From positions 1,696,001-1,760,000 of the forward strand of contig CM000155.2 in NCBI GenBank assembly GCA_000004695.1: a DNA stretch of 64,000 bases, given 5' to 3'. The notes beneath the pieces were generated by a model, which saw only the letters and a list, made by a program, of their open reading frames with translations, was not told the DNA's origin and made no database searches. This DNA comes from Dictyostelium discoideum. Its lineage: Eukaryota. Of this stretch, positions 1,908 to 62,972 are shown one piece after another. The translations under genes and the position numbers were made by a program. Positions within the stretch are counted from its first letter, which is position 1; every line of letters starts with the position of its first letter.

Positions 1908-1910
<3 letters not shown>

Positions 1911-3365
1911 TACTGTTTAAAAATTTATATATTATTTTATATTCTAATAATATCAATGGTATCAATATCACAATGTAATTCATTTTTAATAAAAAGTAAA
2001 CCAGATGTTATGATTGTTGATGAATCAATTCAAATCCATGAAATTGTTTATCAATTATTCGTCCAAAAAGTTGATCATTTTAATTTATTAGATGATAGAA
2101 CATTTTTTCAAAGATTTGTTGTAAATTCAAAATATTGGAATGGCACTGGTCCAGTTTTTTTCATTATTAGTGGGGAACAAAATATGGAGGCCAGTTCTGT
2201 AAATTCTTGTCAGTATACAATTTGGGCCAAACAATTAAATGCATTAATCGTGTCTTTAGAACATAGATATTATGGTGGTAGTTATGTAACTGAAGATTTA
2301 TCAACTGATAATCTAAAATATTTAACAACTCAACAAGCTTTGGCCGATTGTGTTGTATTTATCGATTGGTTTACCAAAGTATATTATCATGTACCATCAT
2401 CATCAAAAATCATTTCATTTGGAGGAAGTTATGCTGGTACTTTATCAGCTTATTTGGCAATGAAATATCCTTCAAAAATAAGTTTCTCTGTTGCTTCAAG
2501 TGCACCATTGAACCCAGTGGTTAATTTTTATCAATATATGGAAGTAATTCAAAAATCAATACTTTTATTAAATAATGGTGAAAAATGTTTAAATAATATT
2601 AAACTTGCAAATAATAAAATCATTGAAATGATTCATGACCCAATATTAACTTATAATATTACAAAATTATTTGGTCTTTGTTCAAATATTGATTTTGATA
2701 ATGATTTATCAACATTCATGTTTGAAATTGCAAATGTTTGGGGAACTGCTGCTCAATATGGTAATTTGGTACCTGGCTATATATCATTGGATTCATTATG
2801 TAATATTATGGTCGATGATTCAAAGGAACCATTGGATAACTATTTATACATTTGGTATGGTATGAAAAATTCTGATGAATGTAATGATGTTACCTATCAA
2901 ACAATGATTGCAAATTTTAAATATAGTCAAATCGACCATTTAAATACAAGAAATGAATTATTTAATATGACAAGACAATGGTTATTTCAATGTTGTACTG
3001 AATTTGGATTTTTCATTACAAGTGATTCATATGATCAACCTTTTACTAATTTCAATTTCAATTTTCAAAGACAAATTTGTATTGATGTATTTGGAAAAAA
3101 ACCTACACTTTCAACAAGTTGGACTTTGGTAGAGTATGGTGGTATTAGTCCAAACTATAACTCTGTTAGAAATGTTTTATTTGTTTCAAGTACTAATGAT
3201 CCTTGGTCATCTCTTTCAATTTCAAAATCAAATCAATATAAAATCGTTATAGTTGAAAATGGTACCCATTGTTCTGATATGATACCAATAAACGAAGTTT
3301 CTGTACCTGATGTTGCAAGGGCTCAAAATGAAATATTTAATTATATATTAGATGCTTTAAATTAA
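1908..3365 (+). CDS. Serine peptidase of family S28 (lysosomal Pro-X carboxypeptidase, PRCP/DPP7-like), secreted
   Basis: A single 485-aa ORF preceded by a roughly 50-nt poly(A) promoter tract. It has an N-terminal hydrophobic signal, the motif FFQRF..DHFN, and the catalytic-serine motif FGGSYAG typical of S28 (GGSYGG). The ORF is uninterrupted. Confidence 0.75.
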
Positions 3366-7244: not shown

Positions 7245-7274
7245 ATTATAAACAAAAGATTTTAAAAAAAAATT

Positions 7275-7347
7275 CGCCCAAAGGGGGGCTCGAACCCCCG
7301 ACCACAAGGTTAAAAGCCTTGCGCTCTACCGACTGAGCTATCTGGGC
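7275..7347 (-). tRNA. tRNA-Lys (anticodon UUU)
   Basis: The reverse complement folds as a cloverleaf: acceptor stem GCCCAGA/TTTGGGC with discriminator G, D-arm GCTCAGTCGGTAGAGC, anticodon stem CAAGG/CCTTG with loop CTTTTAA, T-arm GGGGGTTCGAGCCCCC. Length is 73 nt with no encoded CCA. Confidence 0.9.
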
Positions 7348-8174
7348 ATTTTATTAGAATTATTTTCTTAATATAAGATTTTATAGAGTATATATATAAT
7401 ATAACTAGTATCTCAAAGCAATTAAAAATATCAAATTGTTGGTATTGAGTTATTAAAAAGAATCGTGTTATTTATTTCTTCGTTTTAATTTATCATTCTG
7501 TTATACAATAAGTTAATTTGTAAAGTAAATTTATTTAGGGTGTAATCAAATTTAAAAAATATAAAAAAATAAATGAAAAAAAAAAAAAAAAAAAGTGAAC
7601 TTTTGGGTAAAACGTACGTTAAACATTACAAGGGTTACAACAAAATGACCCTATATAGATTTTTATTTTTTTTTATTTTTTTTGAATTTTTTTTTAAATT
7701 TTTTTTTTGAATTTTTTTTTTTTAATTTTATTTTTAAATTAAATTTGATACCAAAGATAAACAAATGAGCTGTTTAAAAAAAAAAAATAAAAATAAAAAT
7801 AAAAAAAAAAATAAAAATAAAAAATAACTAATAAATTTCAAACAGAAATAATAACAATAATAATAATCTAGATTTATTATAAAAATTAAGAAATCCTATT
7901 AATAATAATAAATAAAATTTTTTTTTTATTTTTTTTTTTTTGTTTTGGTTGTCCCCCTTTTTAATTCATTGTTAATTTTTTATTTATTTATTTTCTATTT
8001 ATTTTTTATTTTTTTATTTTTTTTTTTTGTTCACTTAAATATATTTATATATATATAATAATTATTGAATAAATAAAAAAAAAAAGGCGGGTTGGGTGAA
8101 CAAAAAAAAAAAAAAAAAAATTATTTATTTAATTATTTATTTAATTTTAATTTAAAAAAAAAAAAAAAAAAAAA

Positions 8175-11100
8175 ATGAGACCATTACAACAATGGTCTTT
8201 GTATATAGTATCAATAATAATAATAGTAATTTTAAAAATTGGTAAGTATGAAAAAAAAAAAAAAAAAAAAAAAAAATCGAAAAATTAATTTTTTATTTTT
8301 TTTTTTTTTTAAATTTAGAAAATTGTTTAAGTTCAACCAATTTTATGCCAACATTGGCAGTTGAAAGAAGGTCAACATTATTTATAGGTAATTTAACAAT
8401 AGAATCATCAGAAAGGGATTTAACTATAGGGTTATTACCAGGTACAGGTAATAATTTTGAATGGTTAGTTTTTAAAGATGGATTTAGTTTAATGGAAGGA
8501 AGGAGAGTTCAATCAGATGAATCGAATGATGCATTAAAATTTCAATGTGTTACAAGCTATGATAGTGGAATTTATTATTTCAAACAAAACGACCCAACAA
8601 ACACAGGTTACAATATAGAAACGGAAAGATTCATATTAAATGTCATTGGTAATGATACGGAAACATTGGTAATGATTAGAGAACCATCATCAATAGTTAT
8701 GTCTGGTACATCATTTTCAGTACAACCAGTGATTGGATTTGGAAGAGCGAAATTACCAACATGGAAAGGTGAATCCCGAGGAAGAATTGAACCAGTGATA
8801 TTGGAAAGTCCATCCAACGGGAAGAACATGCATTTTCTACTACAATTTAGAGGTGTCGATATAGATTTGGAGAGAAAAGAGACGACATTCAATACGCTCT
8901 CTCTAATTGGTGAGCCTGGAGTATATAGAATTGGATTCATTGATACCGATACATGTGAAATGTATAAATCAACAATGGAAATCACAGTTATTGGTACATT
9001 GAATTCGCTTTACTTTGAATGGTCATTGTCAGCATTCATAGTGTTATTAATAATCATAGTATCATTGGTAATCAATTTCATAGCAAAACATAAGGTGAAA
9101 TCAAAAGGATTCCTATCATTGAAGATGGCATTCCTCACACCAATGGAAAGTATATACAAATTCAAAGGTGAATCGATTAGATTCTACTTTAAATCACAAA
9201 GATTATTAGTATTCCAATGTTTATTCTTTACTTTTATCAGTTTGGTATTGTTCATACCAGTCACAGTGAAAGGTGATAACAAATTCCGAGACATGATACT
9301 ATTGTCACAAGCCAATTGGAATGCAAATTCACCATTTCTATTCTTTTATCAAGTGCAAGTGTTTTTATTATTCTGTTCATTAATAATTTGTTATACAAGA
9401 TTCAATGATGAAAGAATATATCTTTCACATGATAGTAATCATTTGGTAACATCAAGAAGTGTATTATTGACAGGCTTACCAAGATCATTGACCAATGTTC
9501 AAATGTTGAAAGATTTCCTTCAAACTGGTTATTCAAATGGTGTTTATTCAGTCTCAATCATTCTTATTAAAATATTTTCACAATCAGATAAAGATAACGA
9601 TTTAAATGGTAGATTGGAACATATCTATGTCGATCCAAATACTGATATAAATCAATTACCATCAGAATTGAAAGTTGAATCAACTGGTAAAGCATTTATA
9701 ACATTTTCATGTGTATCGGATGCTCATTTATTTACAAATCAATTCTCATCATACAAATGGACAAAATCATTAATTAAACGTATCACTCAACCAGTTATAC
9801 CTCAAGAGTATCGTACTGAATTGGGTACTGATAATTGGAGGGCCCACCCTGCACCAAGAGTATCCGATATACTTTGGACAAAGTTACATGACCCTGCAAA
9901 TTTTAGAAATGTTGGTTGGACAATACTACAAATGATTGGTATAACATTCTTCTTTTTGGTGATTGTATTCTTTGCCATCATCTTTTACGAAACTCAATTC
10001 TCAATCATTGACACAATTTCACCCATAGATTATGGTACCAAACAAGCCATGCTCGTTAGTTTAACCTCTTATTTAGCCTATTACTTTTGTCCAAGCATTA
10101 TTCTAATGGGTTTAAATCATTCATTACCCGGTATTATTAGATTCATTCTAATGCGATCAAATAATTATGTTAGAAGCTTTTCAAAGAGTAAAGTCATGTT
10201 AATCACCTTTATAGCTCAATCATTAATCATCGTTATTTTCCCATCTGCTTATTTCTTAATCAATGTTAATCCAGATTCCGATCATGTTTCAAATCAAAAT
10301 CTATTCTTAGTACCAATTAAATTCTTACGTAGAGGTGGTTCATTCTATATTCATTTCATTACTATATTCGCTATGTTAACTCCATTCTTAGAATTATCAA
10401 ATCTTTCCGATATAGTTTATAAAATTTTATTTCATAGAAATTTAAAAACTGAAGAAATCTTTAGTTTTGAACCTTTAAATTTAAAAAAACAATATTTAAA
10501 TTCATTATTATTAGTAAGTTATTATTTTTTAAAAAAAATTTAAATTAAAAAAAAAAAAAAAAAACATATTAATTTTAATTTTAATTTTATTTAAATAATA
10601 ATATTAGGTAATGATGATTGGTTGTTATGGACCAATTTTTCCATTATTATGGGTATTTGTATTATCATATTTAATTGTTAAATTTTATTTAGTTAAATAT
10701 GTTTGTATTGCTTCAAAGGCACCAATACCACCAAGTGATAAGTATTTTGCAGTTTCATTTCAACAATGTATTTGGTTCATTTTAACAGTGATATCAACAT
10801 TTCATTTCTATTATGTAGTTTCATTTGGCCGTGTTGATTTAATGTGTGTCTATATATTCTTGGTTGTCGTTGCATTTGGTAAATATTTCCCATCTTGTTC
10901 AAAGAGTTTATGTTATAGTTTCTTTGATGGTGCAGTTTTACCATGTTTTTCAAAAGATAATGGTAAAAATAAAAAAAGTAATTCAATTGATCCAAATGAT
11001 TCAGATTATTATGATGATGAAAGAGATCAAGATTATTATCAAGATTCTGATGATTCAGATTATGATGATGATGATGATGATCAATATGAAGATAATCATA

Positions 11101-11494
11101 GAAATAATGATGGTTATTATCAATATGATGATGATGATGATGATGAAGAAGAAGATGATGATGATGAAGAAGAATATGAAGATGAAGATGAATACGAAGA
11201 TGATCAAGTAGAATTAAGAAGAAGAATGTATGGTAATAGATATAATGATAATGAATATACAGAACAAGATTCATCAGGCGAAGAATATGATGTAAATTCA
11301 CCACCAGAATATTATTATGATGAAGATCGTGGTGAATTTGTTCAACAATTCCCAAGTTCTATTCATCGTCGTAATAATAATAATATGAAAAAACAAAGAG
11401 CAAATTATAGTAATAATAATAACAATAGCAATAACAATAATAATCAAAAACAGCAACAACAGCAACAACAGCAACAACAGCAACAACAGCGACA

Positions 11495-11525
<31 letters not shown>

Positions 11526-11541
11526 AAAAAACAAAAACATC

Positions 11542-11611
<70 letters not shown>

Positions 11612-12149
11612 TTACAATGTTAATTTAACAGAATCATTTGGATCAAGGCCACCACAACCTATTTCTAATGGTGTTTCAAGTGCAGTTTCTCAGCCAGCAT
11701 TACCATTATCAGCAATTCACTCACCATTACCACCACCACCACAACCAGCAACAACAACTACTACAGATTCAAATACAGATTCTAACAGTGGATTACATGA
11801 TGATTTAATTAATGAATATCTTAAAGAACCAAATCAAGATGATGTTAAATTAAATATTCATCATAAATCGAAATTAAAACAAAAGATTTTAAAGATTAAA
11901 CAAAGTTATACTCAAGATCAAGGTTTTGGATTTATGTCTAGATTCTTTGGTCGTTATAAGTTACCAACTCCAGAGTCAATGACTGTTATAACTTATCTAT
12001 CTCCTTATTTTGGTTTGGATATTTCTCAGTGTGAAAATGTTAAAGATATAGAAGAAGAAGAAGATCAAGATATTAACGATGATGATTATGAATATGATGA
12101 TGAGGATAATTTAGGTGGAGGTGGTGATTATGAAGACTATTCTTCTTAA
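8175..12149 (+). CDS. OSCA/TMEM63/CSC1-family mechanosensitive, calcium-permeable cation channel homologue with signal peptide, N-terminal ectodomain, multi-TM core and a long acidic/polyQ C-terminal tail
   Basis: Three exons are proposed: 8175..8241 (MRPLQQWSLYIVSIIIIVILKIG, signal peptide; donor GTAAGT), 8319..10513 and 10608..12149; frames check across both introns. Family hallmarks: the cytosolic motif SRSVLLTGLPRS (compare TVLVTxIP) and the DUF221 start WRAHPAPRVSDILWTKL (compare APxPxDIiWxNL), followed by about 7 TM helices. The tail is rich in D/E/Y and has a (CAA)n polyQ run at 11452-11610. Confidence 0.7.
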
Positions 12150-12600: not shown

Positions 12601-14848
<2,248 letters not shown>

Positions 14849-21074: not shown

Positions 21075-24000
21075 ATGATTGAAAGTCAAAGGGAATTTAA
21101 TTGTATTGGTGGTGATAATCAGAATGGTGTCGCAGTTATTGGTGTAGGTTTTAAAATCCCATTAGATCTAGAAAATTGTTTATCAAGTCCAAGTGAATTA
21201 TATTCAGCATTATTTAATGAATTTGATAGTGTAACAAAGAATACAAGTTCACGTTGGTCTGATAACTATTTTAAAAATGGTGATATTGTTAGTCTTAGTG
21301 CAGGTTTATTACCACTCAGAGAAATTAAATCATTTGATCCAACTTTTTTCGGTATTAATCCATCCGATGCAGATTTAATTGATCCTCAACAAAGATTATT
21401 ATTAAAATGTAACTTTTTTTTATTTTATTTTTATTTTTATTTTTTTATTATTAACAAATTTAATTAAATAAATATATTAGGTGTTTGGAATGCATTAGAA
21501 GATGGTGGTATTGACCCAATCAGTATTCGTTCATCAGATACTAGTGTCTACATTGGTTGTTCAACTATTGACTATTTTCTTTTAAATAGAAATCCTGTTG
21601 ATCCTCATAATCATGGTATTCAAACCGCAAGTTATTCAATTCCAAATAGAATATCATATTGCTTTGATTTTAGAGGTGAAAGTTTGTTTGTTGACACTGC
21701 ATGTTCATCATCACTAAATGCAGTTCATCTTGGTTACAATTCAATTATAAATTTAAAATCAAAATTATCAATTGTTGGTGGTTCCAATTTAATTTTAGGT
21801 ATGAATTATCTTTTTATTTATTTTTTTTTTTTTTTTTTTTTTGTACTATTATTAATATTATTATTAATATTATTATTATTATTTTTATTTTACTGACATA
21901 TATATATTTCCTAGATCCACAAAATAGTATTTTTTTTTCTAAACAACAGGTGAATGGTCCAAGTGGTAAATGTAATAGTTTTTCAGAAGAAGCAGATGGC
22001 TTTGTTCGTAGTGAGACAGTTGGTGTAGTAGTATTAAAGAATTTAAAAGATGCAATTAAAGATGGTGATAGAATTTATTGTGTAATTCAAGGTTCAAATT
22101 CAAATGTTGACGGAAATTATGAAAAATTAAATTATATTTCACCTTCAAAATTATCACAAGCTGAAAATATTACCAAAGCATTAAAATCAACAAATGGTGC
22201 GGTGAATGCATCTGATATTGATTATTTCGAATGTCACGGTACTGGTACACCAACTGGAGATCCAATCGAATTAGAAGGTATATCAATTGCATTAAATAGA
22301 ACTCAACAATCTACAACATTATCAAATCCACTTTTAATAGGTTCAATTAAATCAAATATTGGTCATGGTGAGGCAAGTAGTGGTATAGCCAGTTTAATTA
22401 AATGTTGTGTAATGTTTAAATATCGTCAATTTTTACCAAATATTAATTTCAAAACACCAAATCCATTAATCAAATTTAAAGAATGGAATTTAAAAGTTGT
22501 AACTGAACCAGTTCCATTCAATAATAATAAACAAACTATTATGGCAATTAATAATTTTGGTGTTTCTGGTAAGATTTTAATATAACAATAATAAGAGCAA
22601 AACAAGATAATCAAACTACTAATATTTACTATTTTTTATTTTTATTAAATAGGATCAAATTGTTGTATTATTTTATCAGAATATAAAAGTAATAACAACA
22701 ATAATAATGATTTTAAAGCAACAACACATTTAAAATCAAAGAAATTTATTATACCATTTTCATCAAATTCCTCAACATCATTAGACAATTATAAATCATT
22801 ACTTTCAAATGAAACAAATAATTTTCAAGATTTTGTTATTAAACAAATTAATAATAAATCAACATCATTAATTCAAAGATCAGTAATCATTGCAAGTAAT
22901 TGGAGTGAATTTAATGAGTCATCAAATGAAATTCAATCAAATATTAAAAAATCAATTATATCTAATATCACAATTAAAAAAAAGAATGCAGTTACAGTAT
23001 TTGTATTTTGTGGTCAAGGTTCGCAATATAATAAAATGGCATTATCATTATATGAAAATGAACACATTTTCAAATCAACAATGGATAAATTAGATAAAGA
23101 ACTATCCAAACACTATGGGTATTCAATTTTAGAAAAATTAAGATCAATTACAGATGAAGATTTAGTAACAATTCATCAACCAATTTTAGCAATTCCAGTT
23201 AATGTAATGGTTCAAGTATCTCTATATGAATTGTATAAACATTGGGGTATTAAATCAGATATTATGGTTGGTCATTCGTTTGGAGAAATCGCTTGCTCTT
23301 ATTGCTCTGGTATGGTTGATTTTAAAACATTATGTTATTTAACATACCACAGATCAGTAGCTCAGAATAAAACAATTGGATCAGGTAAAATGTTATCAAT
23401 TAATATTGGTGCTAAAGAATACTTGGATTCTTATTCAACTAAATATCCATCGGTAGAAATCGCATGTTATAATAGTGAAACATCAATCGTTATTGCAGGC
23501 AATGAAGAATTATTAAATGAAATTTCAAAAGATTTAAAATCAAAAGATATTTTTACAGCAATGTTACCATCATTATCAGCATTTCATACAACACACCAAT
23601 CAGTTATTAAAGATGATATTTGCTCATTGAATTTTAAATCGACATTATCAAAAATAACAGTATTTTCCACAGTCACATCTAATCAGTTTGGTATTAATAA
23701 TAATAATAATAATAATAATAATCAACTTAATTCAAATTACCTTTTTCAAAATGTTATTCAACCAGTTAAATTTAGTGAGACAATATCAAATATATATAAA
23801 TACATTGAATCAAATGATATGGGTAATGAAATAACATTTATTGAAATTGCACCACACCCAACATTACAATATTATTTAAATCAAATGAAGTCACAACAAT
23901 CAGAATACTTTAATAATGGTGAAAAGATTTCAATCTATTCAGCATGTAATAAAAAGAAGAATGATTATAATGAATTTTTAAAAACAATTTCAACATTGTT

Positions 24001-26504
24001 TGTAAATGGTTATAATAATATTAATTTTAAATCTCAAATTATTAATAATAATAATAATGATAATAATAATAATTTTAATTTACCATTATATCAATGGGAT
24101 GATAATGAATATTATAAAATTCATCCAACATGGAAAAAAGCAAATAAAAATGGACCATCAATTAATCATCTTGGAAATCTAAATGATTCTTCAATTAAAT
24201 CATTTAAAACCTATATTAATACAAGAAAACCACAATTCCAATGGTTAAAAGGTCATTCTTTAAAAGGAAAAGTTGTATTCCCTGGTATGGGTTATATTTC
24301 AAATTTACTCTCAGTTTATAATATGAACCAAGATATTACAATTAATGAAATTCAATTCAAAAGTGCATTTATTTTAGTCGATGGTGTTAATAACTGTTTA
24401 GAGACATCGATTGTACCATTAACAAAGAATGAATTCAATATTAAATTTCATTTTAAAGATTTAAAAACAAATAAATGGGTATTATGTGCAAATGCTAATT
24501 ATAGTTTATTTAAACATAATGATAATAATGATAAACTTGATATTGAAAAATTAAAATCTAATTGTAATTATACAATAATTTCAAAAGATGAATTATATAA
24601 TAATATTAGAGCTAAAAGTGGATTGATTTATAAAGGTTTATTTCAAGGTGTTAAAGAAGCTTTCATTGGTAATAGATGTTCGTTAACAGTTTTATCATTA
24701 AATGAAATTGAAAACCAACAAGAGTTTAAACATTTATTAGAGAATAGAAACTTCAATTCATTATTTAATACAGCAATTTTAGATTCATGTTTACATGGTT
24801 CACTTCACTCAAAAGAACAATCTCAAATTTATTTTGACAAATGTGAAGGTTTTAAATATTATTCAAACAATATTAATTTAGCAACTTCGAAAAGAAATGA
24901 GTACAAAGAGATTAATGTTTATATTGAAACGAATCCCGTGATCAATTCAACAGTTATTGTAAGTTTAAAAATTATGTTACCAGATGGAACATTATTAATT
25001 GAAATTCAAAAAGTAGTTTGTAAATCATCAATACCAATTATTGATAGTACCTCAGTTATTCAACCATCACCAAAAGATTTACACACACCATATTATCAAC
25101 CAAAAAACTCATTAATTAAACCACCACAATCATTTAAACATTTACATTGTATGAAAGAATTTGCAAGTATAGAATCTGATAATAGAGAAATGGTGTATAT
25201 GTCAATTTATCATTTAATTTTTAAAGCCATCAATGCTAGATCTCCAACAAAAATCAATTTAGAATCCCTTGAAAATTTAACATTAGATCAATTTAAAGAA
25301 TTAATAAAAGACAGTGCAGCAAATATTCAACGTTCCAATCAATTTATATATGAATGTTTAAAACTATACCATACAAATCATTCAAATTATAAAAAAAATC
25401 AAATTAAAGATTTTATTAAAGAATGTGAAGATTTTAATGGATATAATCAAATAATTTTTAAAACAATTAAAATCTATGCAAAATCATTATTCCCATTACC
25501 AGATGACGATCCATTTACAGATACAATTCAATCATTGTTTGAAGATGATCAATTAGAAAACGTTTACATCCATTTAAAACACCTTTATCCAGTAAACAAT
25601 TTATTAAGTGAAATCGTTTTTCAATCAATTAAACCAATAATAAATCAAACATCAACATTTAGAATTTTAGAAATAGGAGCAGGTTATGGTACAATCTCAC
25701 AATTAATATTTGACAAACTCGAACAACTATTAGCAGATAATTTCACATCATCAAGAATTGATATAGAATATACATTTACTGATATTTCAAATACTTTCTT
25801 ACCAAGAGCAAAAGAGAGATATTCAAAATATAAAAGATTCAACATAATTTACAAACTCTTAGATTTAGAACTTCCTTTAACAGAGGGAATTCAAGATTTT
25901 AGACCATTATATTATGATATAGTTGTTATGTCAAATGTTTTACATGTTGTAAAAGATATTAATTTCAGTACAAATGAAATCTATAAAGTTTTAAAACAAA
26001 ATGGTCAATTAATATTTGTAGAACCAACATATAAAAATTTATATCTTGATACTATATTTGGCATATTTCCACAAGTAAGTAGTTATTAATATTTATTATT
26101 ATCTATTTATTAATCTAATATATTTTTTTTTGTAAGTGGTGGTCATTTAATGATGATATTAGAACTGATAGATGTTGTCTTGAACCTTCAAAATGGTTTG
26201 AATTTTTAGAAACAATTAATTTTAAAGATACAATTATTTTGGGTCAAGATAACAAAGAAATCTTGAAAAATGTTGAAAATTCAATAATATTAGTACAAAC
26301 TAGAAAACCATCACAACTTGAATTATCGATAAATAATTCACCATCAACCAACCAATTCAAATCTTTTGAAAACATAATATTATATACTGATGATAACCAA
26401 CAACCAAATGATTGTAGTGAAATTATCGATTTATTAAAATCATTAGAACTACCAATTAAAATAATTAACAATATAGACCAATTTAATCAAATTATTAAAA
26501 CACA

Positions 26505-26571
<67 letters not shown>

Positions 26572-29454
26572 AATAACAATTTAATAATATTTTTAAAATC
26601 AGTTAATCAATTAAATACTAATAATTATAAAGATATTACATTTGAATATGTTCAAATCAATCAAATTTTAGTAAAATTAGAACTTGAAGAAAATTATAAA
26701 TTATTATTAATAACTAATAATTCTCAATCAAGTAATTATTTATCAAATTCATTAATTGGTACATCAAGATATTTATTTGCAGATATAGTATCATCAAAAT
26801 TAGATATTATTACAATTGATTTCGATACCGTTTCAATTAAGAACCATCAAAATGTTATATCAGTTATTAACCATTTATTAGATTCAAAAGATAATAGTGA
26901 AAGAGAATATTATATTATTAATAATGAAATTAATATTGAAAGATATAAAAATGAATCAAATATTAAACATCAATTAAAATCAAAAACCTTTCAAGAAAAT
27001 AAAGATGAATTAATGGTACAATTAGACTCAAATTTAGAATATAGATTAAAATCAAAATCAAAACAAGAATTAAAATCAACTCATGTTGAAATTCAAGTTA
27101 AAGCAATTGGAATTAATTATAAAGATTATGCAACTTACAGTGGTTTAATCGATTCAATCATAGAAATTGATAAAGATAAAGAAAAGGATGAAAATTATGA
27201 CCAAAATTATCCAAGTATTGGTAATGATTTTAGTGGTGTAATTACAAGAATTGGTAGTGATGTTAGAAAGTTTAAAGTTGGTGATGAAGTATGTGGTTTA
27301 GCACCTAAAACATCCGCTTCACATATTATCACTGAAGAAGGTTATCTTTGTAAGAAACCATCAAACATTAGTCACTCTGAAGCTGCATCATCAGTAACAG
27401 TTTACACAACATCATTTCAAAGTATTTATAGCATTGGTGATTTAAAGAAAAATGAAACCATATTAATTCATTCAGGTAGCGGTGGTATTGGTTTATCTGC
27501 ATTGGAAATATTAAAATGGAAAAATCATCAAGGTTACATATTTGCAACTGTAGGCTCTGAAGATAAAGTTAAATATTTAACAGATACCTATGGTTCATTC
27601 ATAACTGGTATATATTCATCCAGAGATAAGGACTATCAAGATCAAATTAAAGAGAAATTAAAATCATTAGGTTGCGATATCGATCATCAAGGAGTAGATC
27701 TAATATTGAATACACTATCAGTAGAGTACATGGATTCAAATTTTAAATGTTTAAATCAAAAAGGTAGATGTATTGATCTTTCAATCACTCATTTAACTCC
27801 ATTTGATTATATGGATTATAATAAATTCAAATTCAATGTTTCCTATGGTAATATTGAACTTGTTGTATTACCATCCAAAATTATTAAAGATCATTTAAAA
27901 AAGATGCTTAAAGCCTTTTCATTAGGTAGTTTAAGATTTATACCTATTGTTGAATTTTCAAATTTGAATATAAGAAATGCAGTCGAATACATTAATCAAC
28001 GTAAACATATTGGTAAAATTGTAGTAAAGAATGATGTTGATTTTATAAATAAATTATTTATTGAACAACAACAACAACAAAACTCTGTTGAAAATAATGA
28101 AATTTTAATGAAAGATAAATATGATATTTCAAATTTAGAACTTGGTAAAAATATATTATTAACTGGTCAAACAGGTATTATTTTAACTATATTAAAATGG
28201 TTATATAAACATTCAAATAATTCAATTGAAAATATTATTATAATTTCCAAATCAAAATTAAAATGGGAATTAGAATTATTTATAAATGAATCAACTAATA
28301 ATAGAATTAAAATTCATTATAAACAAGCTGACGTTGGTAATAATAATGAATTAAATCAGTGCTTTGAAGAATTAAGATTACGACATTCAATTGAAGATAT
28401 TAATTCAATTTTCCATTTTGCATTTATTAATGATATTGGTCAATTTGAAGATGTTAATATGAATCGTATGGATATCGCTCATCATGCTAAAGCAATTGGT
28501 TCACTTAATTTACATAACCAATCTATTGAACGTAAATGGAATATTAAACAATTTGTATTGGCATCTTCGGCGTTATCAGTATTTGGTGGAGACAACCAAT
28601 GTTGTTATATCAGTGCTTGTTCAGTTTTAGACTCCTTATCAAAGTATAGAAAATCAATTGGTCTTCCATCTTTATCAATTAACTTTGGTGGTGTAACATC
28701 AACTGGTTTCGTATCTCGTAGTGGTGCTGTCGAAGCTAACCTTGAAAGTTCTATTATCAATTTAATTACACCACAATCATTAATTTCTTCATTGGATTTA
28801 TTTATTCAAAACTCTCAAACCTTTTCAAACTATACTCATTTCAATTTCATATATGATAATATAGAATCATATTCACTCAACAGAATGTTATTTAAATTTG
28901 ACTATTTAATCAACCAACATTCCTCATTAGTTTCAAATAAAAGATTAGGTGGAATAAATGAAAATAATAATATTGGTGATTTATTAGTATCAAAAATTGG
29001 TGAACTTTTATCAATTGAGCCATCAAAATTGAATTTAGATTTTAGATTAGTTGGTAAGTTTTGTTTTTTTTTATTTATAATTTTTATTTTATTATTACTA
29101 ATCTTTTCTAAAAATTAATAAATAAAATTAGATTATGGTTTAGATTCATTGGTTATCGTTCAACTTAAAAATTTTATTGATAAACAATTCCAACCTCATT
29201 TAATTTCAATTTTACAATTACAAAATAATAAAATCTCAACAACAATAGAAATTATAATCAAAGGATATAATAATAATCAAAATAAAAAAATTAAAAATGA
29301 ACAATCAAATGACATTCCAAGTGTAGTTCAAAAAGAAACTATCAAAGATAACAATGAAAATAAAGACGATATAAAAATCGATATGGATGATAAAAAAGAA
29401 AATTTAAAAGGTAAAAAAGAGAATATTGATGACAAAAAAGAAAATAACAATTAG
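21075..29454 (+). CDS. Type I iterative, highly reducing polyketide synthase with domain order KS-AT-DH-CMeT-ER-KR-ACP (copy 1, apparently intact)
   Basis: Six exons are proposed: 21075..21408, 21481..21798, 21915..22568, 22652..26074, 26137..29053, 29132..29454. Domain motifs seen: KS ([10 protein letters not shown]|[25 protein letters not shown]|[30 protein letters not shown]); AT (GHSFGE); CMeT ([12 protein letters not shown]); ER ([13 protein letters not shown]); KR ([10 protein letters not shown]); ACP ([12 protein letters not shown]). Intron donors are GTAACT, GTATGA, GTAAGA and GTAAGT, all with AG acceptors. Confidence 0.85.
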
Positions 29455-62890: not shown

Positions 62891-62972
62891 GACATCGTAG
62901 CGAAGTGGTCTAACGCGTTTGACTTGAAATCAAATCTCCTAGGAGGCGCAGGTTCGAACCCTGCCGATGTCG
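62891..62972 (+). tRNA. tRNA-Ser (anticodon UGA)
   Basis: Acceptor GACATCG/CGATGTC with discriminator G; anticodon stem TTTGA/TCAAA with loop CTTGAAA; long variable arm TCTCCTAGGAGGCG; T-arm GCAGGTTCGAACCCTGC. Length is 82 nt. Confidence 0.9.

Follow-up and report, generated by a model that had tools for sequence, protein, structure and literature searches.

The gene analysed here, on the plus strand of Dictyostelium discoideum DNA, encodes, as judged from sequence comparison and structure prediction, a very divergent homologue of the TMEM63/OSCA family of membrane channels, which carries two tandem immunoglobulin (Ig)-like domains on its N-terminal side. It lies in the first quarter of the window, by which is meant the whole stretch of 64,000 nucleotides (nt) under study (positions 1,696,001 to 1,760,000 of contig CM000155.2, assembly GCA_000004695.1), and all coordinates below are counted from the first letter of that window. 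The G+C content of the window is 22.7%, its intergenic DNA is poly-A/T and its coding repeats are of polyglutamine (polyQ) and polyasparagine (polyN), as is usual in Dictyostelium. Splicing of the three exons (Table 1) gives a coding sequence of 3804 nt with an intact reading frame and a product of 1267 amino acids (aa). An exact-sequence look-up of this product found no identical entry in the protein collection, the nearest entries, from D. cf. discoideum and D. citrinum, being 96% and 93% identical to it; the orthologues are named in the databases just as "hypothetical", "uncharacterized" or "transmembrane" proteins.

The initial annotation of this locus had placed both introns exactly; they are AT-rich, run from GT to AG and are in agreement with the junctions of the orthologues. 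In fact, exons 2 and 3 have a G+C content of 29-31%, against the 7.8% and 4.3% of the introns, and the peptides which span the two junctions, ..KTENCLSS.. and ..NSLLLVMMIGCYGP.., are both present in the NCBI models for the orthologues from D. cf. discoideum and D. citrinum. In the genomic DNA of D. citrinum, exon 1 is kept with an in-frame 6-bp indel, and likewise the GTAAGT donor and the acceptor context, while intron 1 itself has diverged in both length and sequence. The junction between exons 2 and 3 (..NSLLL before it, VMMIGCYGPIFP.. after it) falls within a transmembrane (TM) helix and is gapless across all nine of the aligned sequences. The gene structure is therefore supported at its junctions by comparison between sequences.

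A single open reading frame (ORF) at 8345-10543 (732 aa) holds both Ig-like domains (D1 and D2), the cytosolic domain and the helices TM0 to TM6. The fusion of the Ig-like domains with the channel is therefore independent of splicing, because exon 2 alone encodes the ectodomain together with TM0-TM6.

Three other explanations of the locus were considered and set aside. A gene-fusion or mis-annotation artefact is ruled out, the Ig domains and TM0-TM6 being in one ORF, and so is a pseudogene or decaying paralogue, given a ratio of non-synonymous to synonymous substitution rates (dN/dS) of 0.06 for exon 2 and more than 130 invariant columns. The minus-strand ORFs of the locus (e.g. 10777-11355) were rejected as genes, since their H/L/I-rich sequences simply mirror the D/E/Y/Q repeats.

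Upstream of the gene, the A/T-only leader contains a sole G+C-rich island, GGCGGGTTGGGTG at 8086-8098 (+), 77-89 bp 5' of the ATG. It occurs a single time in the window, where 0.03 chance matches are expected, and the same element (…ggcgggttgggtg…) is also found 5' of the ATG of the D. citrinum orthologue. It can be regarded as a candidate promoter element.

Table 1. Features of the gene and of its predicted product, in window coordinates
Feature	Position	Strand	Description
Gene, three exons	8175-8241, 8319-10513, 10608-12149	+	ATG at 8175, stop at 12147-12149
Exon 1	8175..8241	+	Residues 1-22 and base 1 of codon 23; signal-peptide-like: MRPLQQW, then hydrophobic SLYIVSIIIIVIL
Intron 1	8242..8318	+	77 nt, GTAAGT..AG, 7.8% GC
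Exon 2	8319-10513	+	Ectodomain and TM0-TM6 encoded together
Intron 2	10514..10607	+	94 nt, GTAAGT..AG, 4.3% GC; splits TM7
Exon 3	10608-12149	+	Rest of TM7 to C-terminus
Ig-like D1	8342..8650	+	Residues ~31-133; IgSF/I-set-like; W71, C99, DSGIY (104-108), NTGYN (117-121); no canonical B-F disulfide
Ig-like D2	8651..8995	+	Residues ~134-248; bacterial-type Ig repeat; PS..SG.SF..QP.I, F..L.IIGEPG.Y.IGF.D.DTC; invariant C235
TM0	8996..9094	+	Predicted (AlphaFold2) helix 249-281, hydrophobic core 259-277; then K-rich cytosolic loop AKHKVKSK
TM1-TM2 hairpin	9170..9427	+	Residues 307-392; conserved extracellular loop GDN..SQ.NW; aligns to TMEM63A residues 126-241; hydropathy
Cytosolic IL2-like domain	9428..9892	+	Residues 393-547; SVLLTGLP, GKAFITFSCVSDAHLF, APRVSDILWTKL; sub-threshold PHM7_cyt; four beta-strands and helices (low-confidence AlphaFold2); aligns to TMEM63A
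TM3-TM6, putative pore-lining helices	9893..10396	+	Residues 548-715; E714 at 10391-10393
TM7 (continued) to TM10	10608..10883	+	Residues 755-846; TMEM63A alignment, hydropathy, AlphaFold2
Cys-rich juxtamembrane segment PSCSKSLCYSFFDGAVLPCF	10890..10949	+	Residues 849-868, directly after TM10
C-terminal tail	10950..12146	+	Residues 869-1267; D/E/Y-rich, polyN, polyQ; Q runs of 13, 11 and 23
Conserved C-terminal motif in tail	11889..12026	+	Residues 1182-1227 (46 aa): L.IKQ.Y....F.F...RYKLP.P.S.T...Y.SP.Y....S

A divergent TMEM63/OSCA core

On the evidence of sequence comparison, the core of the protein (residues ~250-870) is truly homologous to TMEM63/OSCA, though very divergent, and stands nearer to animal TMEM63 than to plant OSCA. 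When the protein was searched with phmmer against the PDB sequences, human TMEM63A was found at an E-value of 6e-11 over two collinear stretches, one covering TM1-TM2 and the other going from the cytosolic IL2 domain to TM9. With a family profile, TMEM63A was reached at 4e-13 and TMEM63B at 2.5e-8, and no solved plant OSCA was detected at E<=1. A profile of the core, run against the protein collection, returned only the dictyostelid family and one canonical OSCA, a protein carrying RSN1_TM (PF13967), RSN1_7TM (PF02714) and PHM7_cyt (PF14703), at 4e-14; the alignment to this three-domain protein by hhalign had a probability of 97.7% and an E-value of 1.9e-12 over 516 columns. The identification of an OSCA/TMEM63 core made in the initial annotation is thus borne out by phmmer, the family profile and hhalign, as well as by the ranking of the structural matches described below, and the features on which it was founded, a TVLVxxIP-like motif and a multi-helix membrane block, are present as SVLLTGLP and approximately eleven TM helices.

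The animal proteins TMEM63A/B/C (CSC1-like; PDB 8ehw, 8grs, 8wua, 8ehx) are the best matches in both sequence and structure. They have in common with the protein described here the collinear order TM0-TM10, the IL2 domain between TM2 and TM3, the TM6 glutamate and the N-out topology, as well as a set of short motifs, namely PV..(S/K)GD after TM1, TGLPR, AF(V/I)TF and D(I)(C/L)W before TM3. In the IL2 domain of the product, the corresponding motifs are SVLLTGLP (403-410), GKAFITF (479-485) and APRVSDILW (534-542). The differences from TMEM63 consist of an identity of ~15-20% and of the additional parts: a putative signal peptide, a tandem-Ig ectodomain of ~220 aa, a Cys-rich segment after TM10 and a tail of 400 aa with a motif of its own. 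TMEM63 proteins have been reported as monomers, while OSCAs dimerise via the cytosolic domain.

The Pfam models, by which the initial annotation had proposed to confirm the core, responded only in part. On the full protein, no RSN1_TM, PHM7_cyt or RSN1_7TM match was obtained at E<=1. With the tail removed, PHM7_cyt scored 22.5 bits against a cut-off of 27, while the DUF221 block expected at this position, RSN1_7TM, was absent even at E<=10. At this last threshold, PHM7_cyt appeared below its cut-off in seven of the nine family members and RSN1_7TM in two of them, and the family proteins recovered by database searches carried no precomputed OSCA-family Pfam domain. Taken literally, Pfam comes close to returning no OSCA/DUF221 domain at all, which would have spoken against the assignment, a result that is overturned by the more sensitive methods above. 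The failure of Pfam is a limit in the sensitivity of its models and no evidence against homology.

In the published plan of OSCA1.2, the N-terminus is extracellular, eleven TM helices follow, and a cytosolic domain with a four-stranded sheet separates TM2 from TM3 (PMC6235563). The same plan of eleven helices, N-terminus outside and IL2 domain is found here, as far as secondary structure, hydropathy and charge distribution indicate. In fact, the AlphaFold2 (AF2) model contains eleven long helices (249-280, 307-338, 361-392, 548-588, 597-635, 643-672, 684-715, 744-764, 766-789, 798-826 and 830-844) and, at low confidence, four strands within 399-534, which would make up the cytosolic domain between helices 3 and 4. 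When the full model was compared with the PDB by Foldseek, ranks 1 to 27 were all occupied by TMEM63/OSCA structures (E-values of 6e-9 to 5e-3), followed by TMEM16. Among the plant and fungal OSCA/CSC1/ERD4 (DUF221) proteins, this low-confidence model matched OSCA3.1, OSCA1.1 and OSCA1.2 at 4e-7 to 1e-4. The three-dimensional match to TMEM63/OSCA is to be taken as supportive rather than decisive.

In TM6, the glutamate E714 (FLELSNL) aligns with the TM6 glutamate of TMEM63A (MELLRL), and this column is E or D in nine out of nine family sequences. According to the OSCA1.2 study, E531 is the one acidic residue facing the pore that is conserved, and it sets the conductance (PMC6235563).

A tandem Ig-like ectodomain and its placement

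The extracellular region of about 220 residues described in the initial annotation as Ig-like is present and is predicted to be folded, with an Ig-like fold consisting of two tandem beta-sandwiches. The AF2 model of residues 24-287 had a mean predicted local distance difference test score (pLDDT) of 76.7 and a predicted template-modelling score (pTM) of 0.67, and the two sandwiches predicted for D1 and D2 match tandem Ig domains. In the same model, the last strand of D2 passes into the TM0 helix without any intervening linker. As regards the Cys..(D/S)SGxYxC pattern on which the earlier description was based, DSGxY is real, while the cysteines are non-canonical, the actual sequence being C99-VTSY-DSGIYYF.

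In a search of 1.84 billion representative proteins with an ectodomain-only profile, the two halves of the profile pointed to different relatives. Profile positions ~23-133, corresponding to D1, match animal Ig-repeat proteins (Ig_3, I-set), which only the family profile reaches, at whole-protein E-values of about 5e-10; for a single domain, hhalign gave an E-value of 6e-5 with a probability of 65%. In common with the I-set/C2 domains of the immunoglobulin superfamily (IgSF; contactin, titin, CEACAM), D1 has a C-strand tryptophan (the invariant W71), an E strand of the L.I type, DSGxY and the G-strand pattern, and in the hhalign comparison with a CEACAM-like domain LTI stands opposite LTC, and DSGIYYF opposite DTGSYEC. 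Profile positions ~113-204, corresponding to D2, match repeats which occur in 8-17 tandem copies per protein in large Big_1, Invasin_D3 and CarboxypepD_reg proteins, with E-values down to 3e-39; these names are annotations of the matched proteins as a whole. The motifs PS..SG..F..QP and F.GL.I.G..G.Y.L.F are those that D2 and this bacterial-type, invasin-like repeat have in common.

In contrast with IgSF domains, the pair described here lacks the cysteines linking strands B and F, has in each domain a single invariant cysteine, C99 in D1 (E strand) and C235 in D2 (close to its end), and is joined to a polytopic channel-like protein instead of a single-pass anchor. Moreover, the ectodomain gave no Pfam match at E<=10, including the Ig families (ig, I-set, Ig_3, V-set), Big_1 and Invasin_D3.

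The position of these domains with respect to the membrane follows from the segments on both sides. The hydrophobic N-terminus encoded by exon 1 was called a signal peptide in the initial annotation, and this description fits what is observed, since a hydropathy peak covers residues 8-26 and exon 1 is conserved in D. citrinum; residues 1-22 carry one arginine (R2), followed by a hydrophobic core of 13 residues. The full-length orthologues and the ectodomain relative of Mantamonas discussed below likewise start with a hydrophobic stretch that ends in a small residue (..SKSNG, ..HVEG, ..VHG, ..SVHA). The segment is thus signal-peptide-like and its cleavage is putative. After TM0, the loop at 278-318 holds ten K/R residues, in keeping with the positive-inside rule and with a topology of the OSCA type, in which the N-terminus is outside. 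The stretch of ~220 residues enclosed by the two hydrophobic segments must be extracellular or luminal because the family is N-out, R2 precedes the first segment and ten K/R follow TM0, and this placement holds whether the first segment is cleaved or uncleaved. The sequon N47-x-T is retained in five of the seven sequences covering that position.

Two other fates of the N-terminal segment must be considered: it could stay as an uncleaved signal anchor, giving twelve TM helices, or exon 1 could be unused, so that translation would begin at M32 in exon 2 and yield a protein lacking a targeting signal. An in-frame ATG at 8345 would provide for the alternative start, and, as a cleavage site, the c-region KIENC-LSS departs from the textbook form. 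Against this, D. citrinum keeps exon 1 with its donor and acceptor, and all full-length orthologues and the Mantamonas relative start as signal peptides do: the n-region is short, and it is followed by a hydrophobic core that gives way to a small residue. Furthermore, without the N-terminal segment the Ig domains would be cytosolic, at odds with the N-out topology of the family, while an uncleaved anchor would leave them outside and would not affect the main conclusion. These two possibilities together are very improbable, and a signal-peptide-like segment preceding an external Ig pair is preferred.

Conservation and proposed function

The reading which we consider probable from the sequence is that of a cation pathway of the TMEM63/OSCA type, gated by tension or osmotically, whose TM0 is capped by two Ig-like domains. 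According to this proposal, the core would consist of eleven TM helices (TM0-TM10) in an N-out/C-in arrangement, with the cytosolic IL2 domain between TM2 and TM3, and its extracellular N-terminus would be lengthened by a cleavable signal peptide and the two tandem Ig-like domains, the second of them linked without spacer to TM0. Like that of TMEM63/OSCA, the pathway formed by TM3-TM7 would be mechanosensitive, opening when the membrane is under tension or the cell under osmotic stress, and would conduct cations and possibly scramble lipids too. The Ig pair would lie outside the cell or in a lumen, where it would rigidly cap the peripheral TM0 and modulate the protein; it might bind a ligand of the matrix, of a cell surface or of a particle, pass external force to TM0 as a tether, or serve self-association or trafficking.

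Several points weigh against this proposal. The core lies below every Pfam gathering threshold and has ~15-21% identity to characterised members, so that a change or loss of channel function is possible. The full-length AF2 model, built with nine sequences, is poor (mean pLDDT 47.5), and the Foldseek template-modelling scores obtained with it are just 0.35-0.50, by which the match to TMEM63/OSCA is one of ranking specificity and not a good superposition. The equivalence of E714 to E531 of OSCA1.2 is suggested via the alignment to TMEM63A, not directly, and the canonical OSCA-family protein P0155 has Q at the E714 column in the hhalign comparison. As for the ectodomain, the canonical Ig cysteines of D1 are replaced by I58 at the B-strand position and F110 at the F-strand position, leaving no Ig disulfide in this domain, and Ig domains are often mere spacers or folding/trafficking modules.

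The divergence of the core also bears on an explanation in which the TMEM63/OSCA fold is kept in a protein that, rather than being an ion channel, acts chiefly in lipid scrambling or membrane repair, the Ig domains being in charge of luminal/extracellular quality control or of targeting, for instance to the contractile vacuole or to endolysosomes. TMEM16 scramblases are the next-best structural matches after TMEM63/OSCA, two recent papers report scramblase potential or activity for OSCA/TMEM63 (PMC11534332, PMC13013810), and a 2026 review puts TMEM63 on lysosomes (PMC13494684). On the other hand, the pore-facing acidic residue is conserved, and sequence cannot separate scrambling from conduction, activities which are not mutually exclusive in the superfamily. 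We consider a mainly scrambling or repairing protein rather doubtful, and the gated cation pathway is retained as the preferred reading.

The homologues recovered were all dictyostelid, with six genera represented; they come from Dictyostelium, Polysphondylium, Tieghemostelium, Acytostelium (with two paralogues) and Cavenderia, together with one JGI contig and two EukProt models, and every one of them keeps the ectodomain, in which 29 columns are invariant, C99 and C235 among them. With respect to D. citrinum, dN/dS amounts to 0.11 in the ectodomain (0.14 in D1 and 0.09 in D2) and to 0.015-0.06 in the core; the whole protein is under purifying selection, with the ectodomain evolving faster. 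Outside the dictyostelids, the sole relative of the complete ectodomain is a pair of transcripts of the deep-branching flagellate Mantamonas plastica (P0047/P0156; EukProt TRINITY_DN1007_c0_g1_i4 and _i3), with a signal peptide, D1, D2, both invariant cysteines and the YIDTDTC motif. These transcripts stop where TM0 should start, with an apparent TM0 onset and then seemingly unspliced sequence. A search of the protein collection with an ectodomain profile including Mantamonas returned only the Mantamonas cluster, and a metagenome scan gave only the contig already encoding the homologue P0003.

Two dictyostelid-like EukProt gene models of orthologues (P0006 and P0010) show N-terminal fusions to unrelated domains, GST in one case and TPR plus ~600 aa in the other, followed by the Ig domains. 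These are most likely gene-prediction joins with upstream neighbours and no real architectures.

The contrast in constraint between core and ectodomain argues against a further explanation, that of an adhesion or recognition receptor which has lost transport, where the Ig pair would be the functional part and the TMEM63-like body an anchor or a signalling scaffold with the C-terminal motif. An extreme divergence from characterised channels, below the Pfam cut-offs, would be understandable in such a protein, the conserved cytosolic C-terminal motif and the Cys-rich juxtamembrane segment resemble interaction sites, and the Mantamonas transcripts carry the Ig ectodomain without a channel core. 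Nevertheless, constraint is strongest in the TM core, whose helices contain many invariant polar and Pro/Gly residues, with E/D kept at 714, which would be unexpected for a mere anchor; the Mantamonas transcripts, in turn, look truncated or intron-retaining right at the expected start of TM0. The loss of transport in favour of recognition is therefore distinctly unlikely, and a conducting core with a modulatory ectodomain remains the reading adopted here.

A stronger version of the latter, which for the time being seems unlikely, is that of a receptor-channel: the tandem-Ig pair, rigidly attached to TM0 and bound to matrix, substratum, a neighbouring cell or prey, would gate the TMEM63-like pore or set its threshold by tether force or by ligand, beyond the action of membrane tension alone, and the module would be ancient, common to Mantamonas, and no dictyostelid invention. 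A functional analogy is provided by the TMC1/2 mechanotransduction complex of the TMEM16/OSCA/TMC superfamily, which has the same TM fold and works with extracellular cadherin-repeat tethers. By this analogy, with no homology of the ectodomains claimed, the fold can apparently be driven by an external filament. The tether of TMC (protocadherin-15) is a separate polypeptide, whereas the beta-sandwich domains described here are part of the same chain.

To our knowledge, current descriptions of OSCA/TMEM63 proteins attribute their gating to the lipid bilayer alone and give them no structured extracellular part. In fact, the structure of OSCA1.2 is reported to lack structured extracellular domains (PMC6235563), whereas a structured Ig-like ectodomain is predicted here, and the words "N-terminal", "signal peptide", "extracellular domain" and "amoeb" do not occur in the text of the 2026 family review (PMC13494684). 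Both are in line with the view of the initial annotation that the architecture is unusual. Literature searches combining Dictyostelium with TMEM63/OSCA/DUF221, or TMEM63 with Ig-like or N-terminal extracellular domains, returned nothing relevant, and no paper was found on an Ig ectodomain joined to TMEM63/OSCA.

One channel of the family may therefore carry an external sensor or tether of its own, and a haploid, genetically tractable amoeba offers a direct route to ask whether the channel fold couples to extracellular ligands or tethers. Moreover, since these proteins escape Pfam-based annotation, censuses of mechanosensitive channels in Amoebozoa may miss them. The practical pay-off is modest pending a function.

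C-terminal tail and neighbouring loci

Directly after TM10, the Cys-rich juxtamembrane segment lies among a group of invariant columns (Y847, P849, S850, S852, S854, C856, Y857, D861, G862, A863 and P866); a role in palmitoylation, docking or metal binding would be only a guess. The acidic and polyQ tail which follows exists as described in the initial annotation, with a length of 399 aa rather than the ~450 given there, and its composition is 17% Q, 15% D, 9% N, 8% E and 7% Y. Most of it is absent or unalignable in other genera, the alignment consisting there mainly of gaps, and the bulk of the tail is an unremarkable simple-sequence expansion of the kind usual in D. discoideum. Within it, the conserved motif at residues 1182-1227 has L1182, Q1186, Y1188, L1206, Y1217, S1219, P1220 and S1227 invariant in nine sequences, and may be a cytosolic docking or regulatory element. 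Neither this motif nor the segment 849-868 has a Pfam match.

As regards the surroundings of the gene, a serine carboxypeptidase S28 gene lies upstream at 1908-3365 (+; Pfam E-value of 2e-94), and the upstream neighbour of the D. citrinum orthologue is also a Peptidase_S28 (locus L001, 1-536); local synteny is therefore conserved. ARAGORN predicted a tRNA-Lys(UUU) at 7274-7348 (-), ~830 bp upstream of the gene, and a tRNA-Ser(UGA) was predicted by the same program at 62891-62972 (+), near the far end of the window. Downstream, an ORF at 12770-14848 (+) is composed by more than half of polyQ, with a repeated "(S/L)LPQMYEQQQ" unit, and no Pfam match was obtained for the 315 aa of its C-terminal part, which is free of repeats. 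Further on, two polyketide-synthase-like genes stand in tandem at 23036-29118 (+) and 32139-~38106 (+), with ORFs containing acyltransferase and methyltransferase domains; the first of them is followed by an ORF bearing enoyl-reductase-like and ketoreductase domains. The two are probably the result of a recent duplication.

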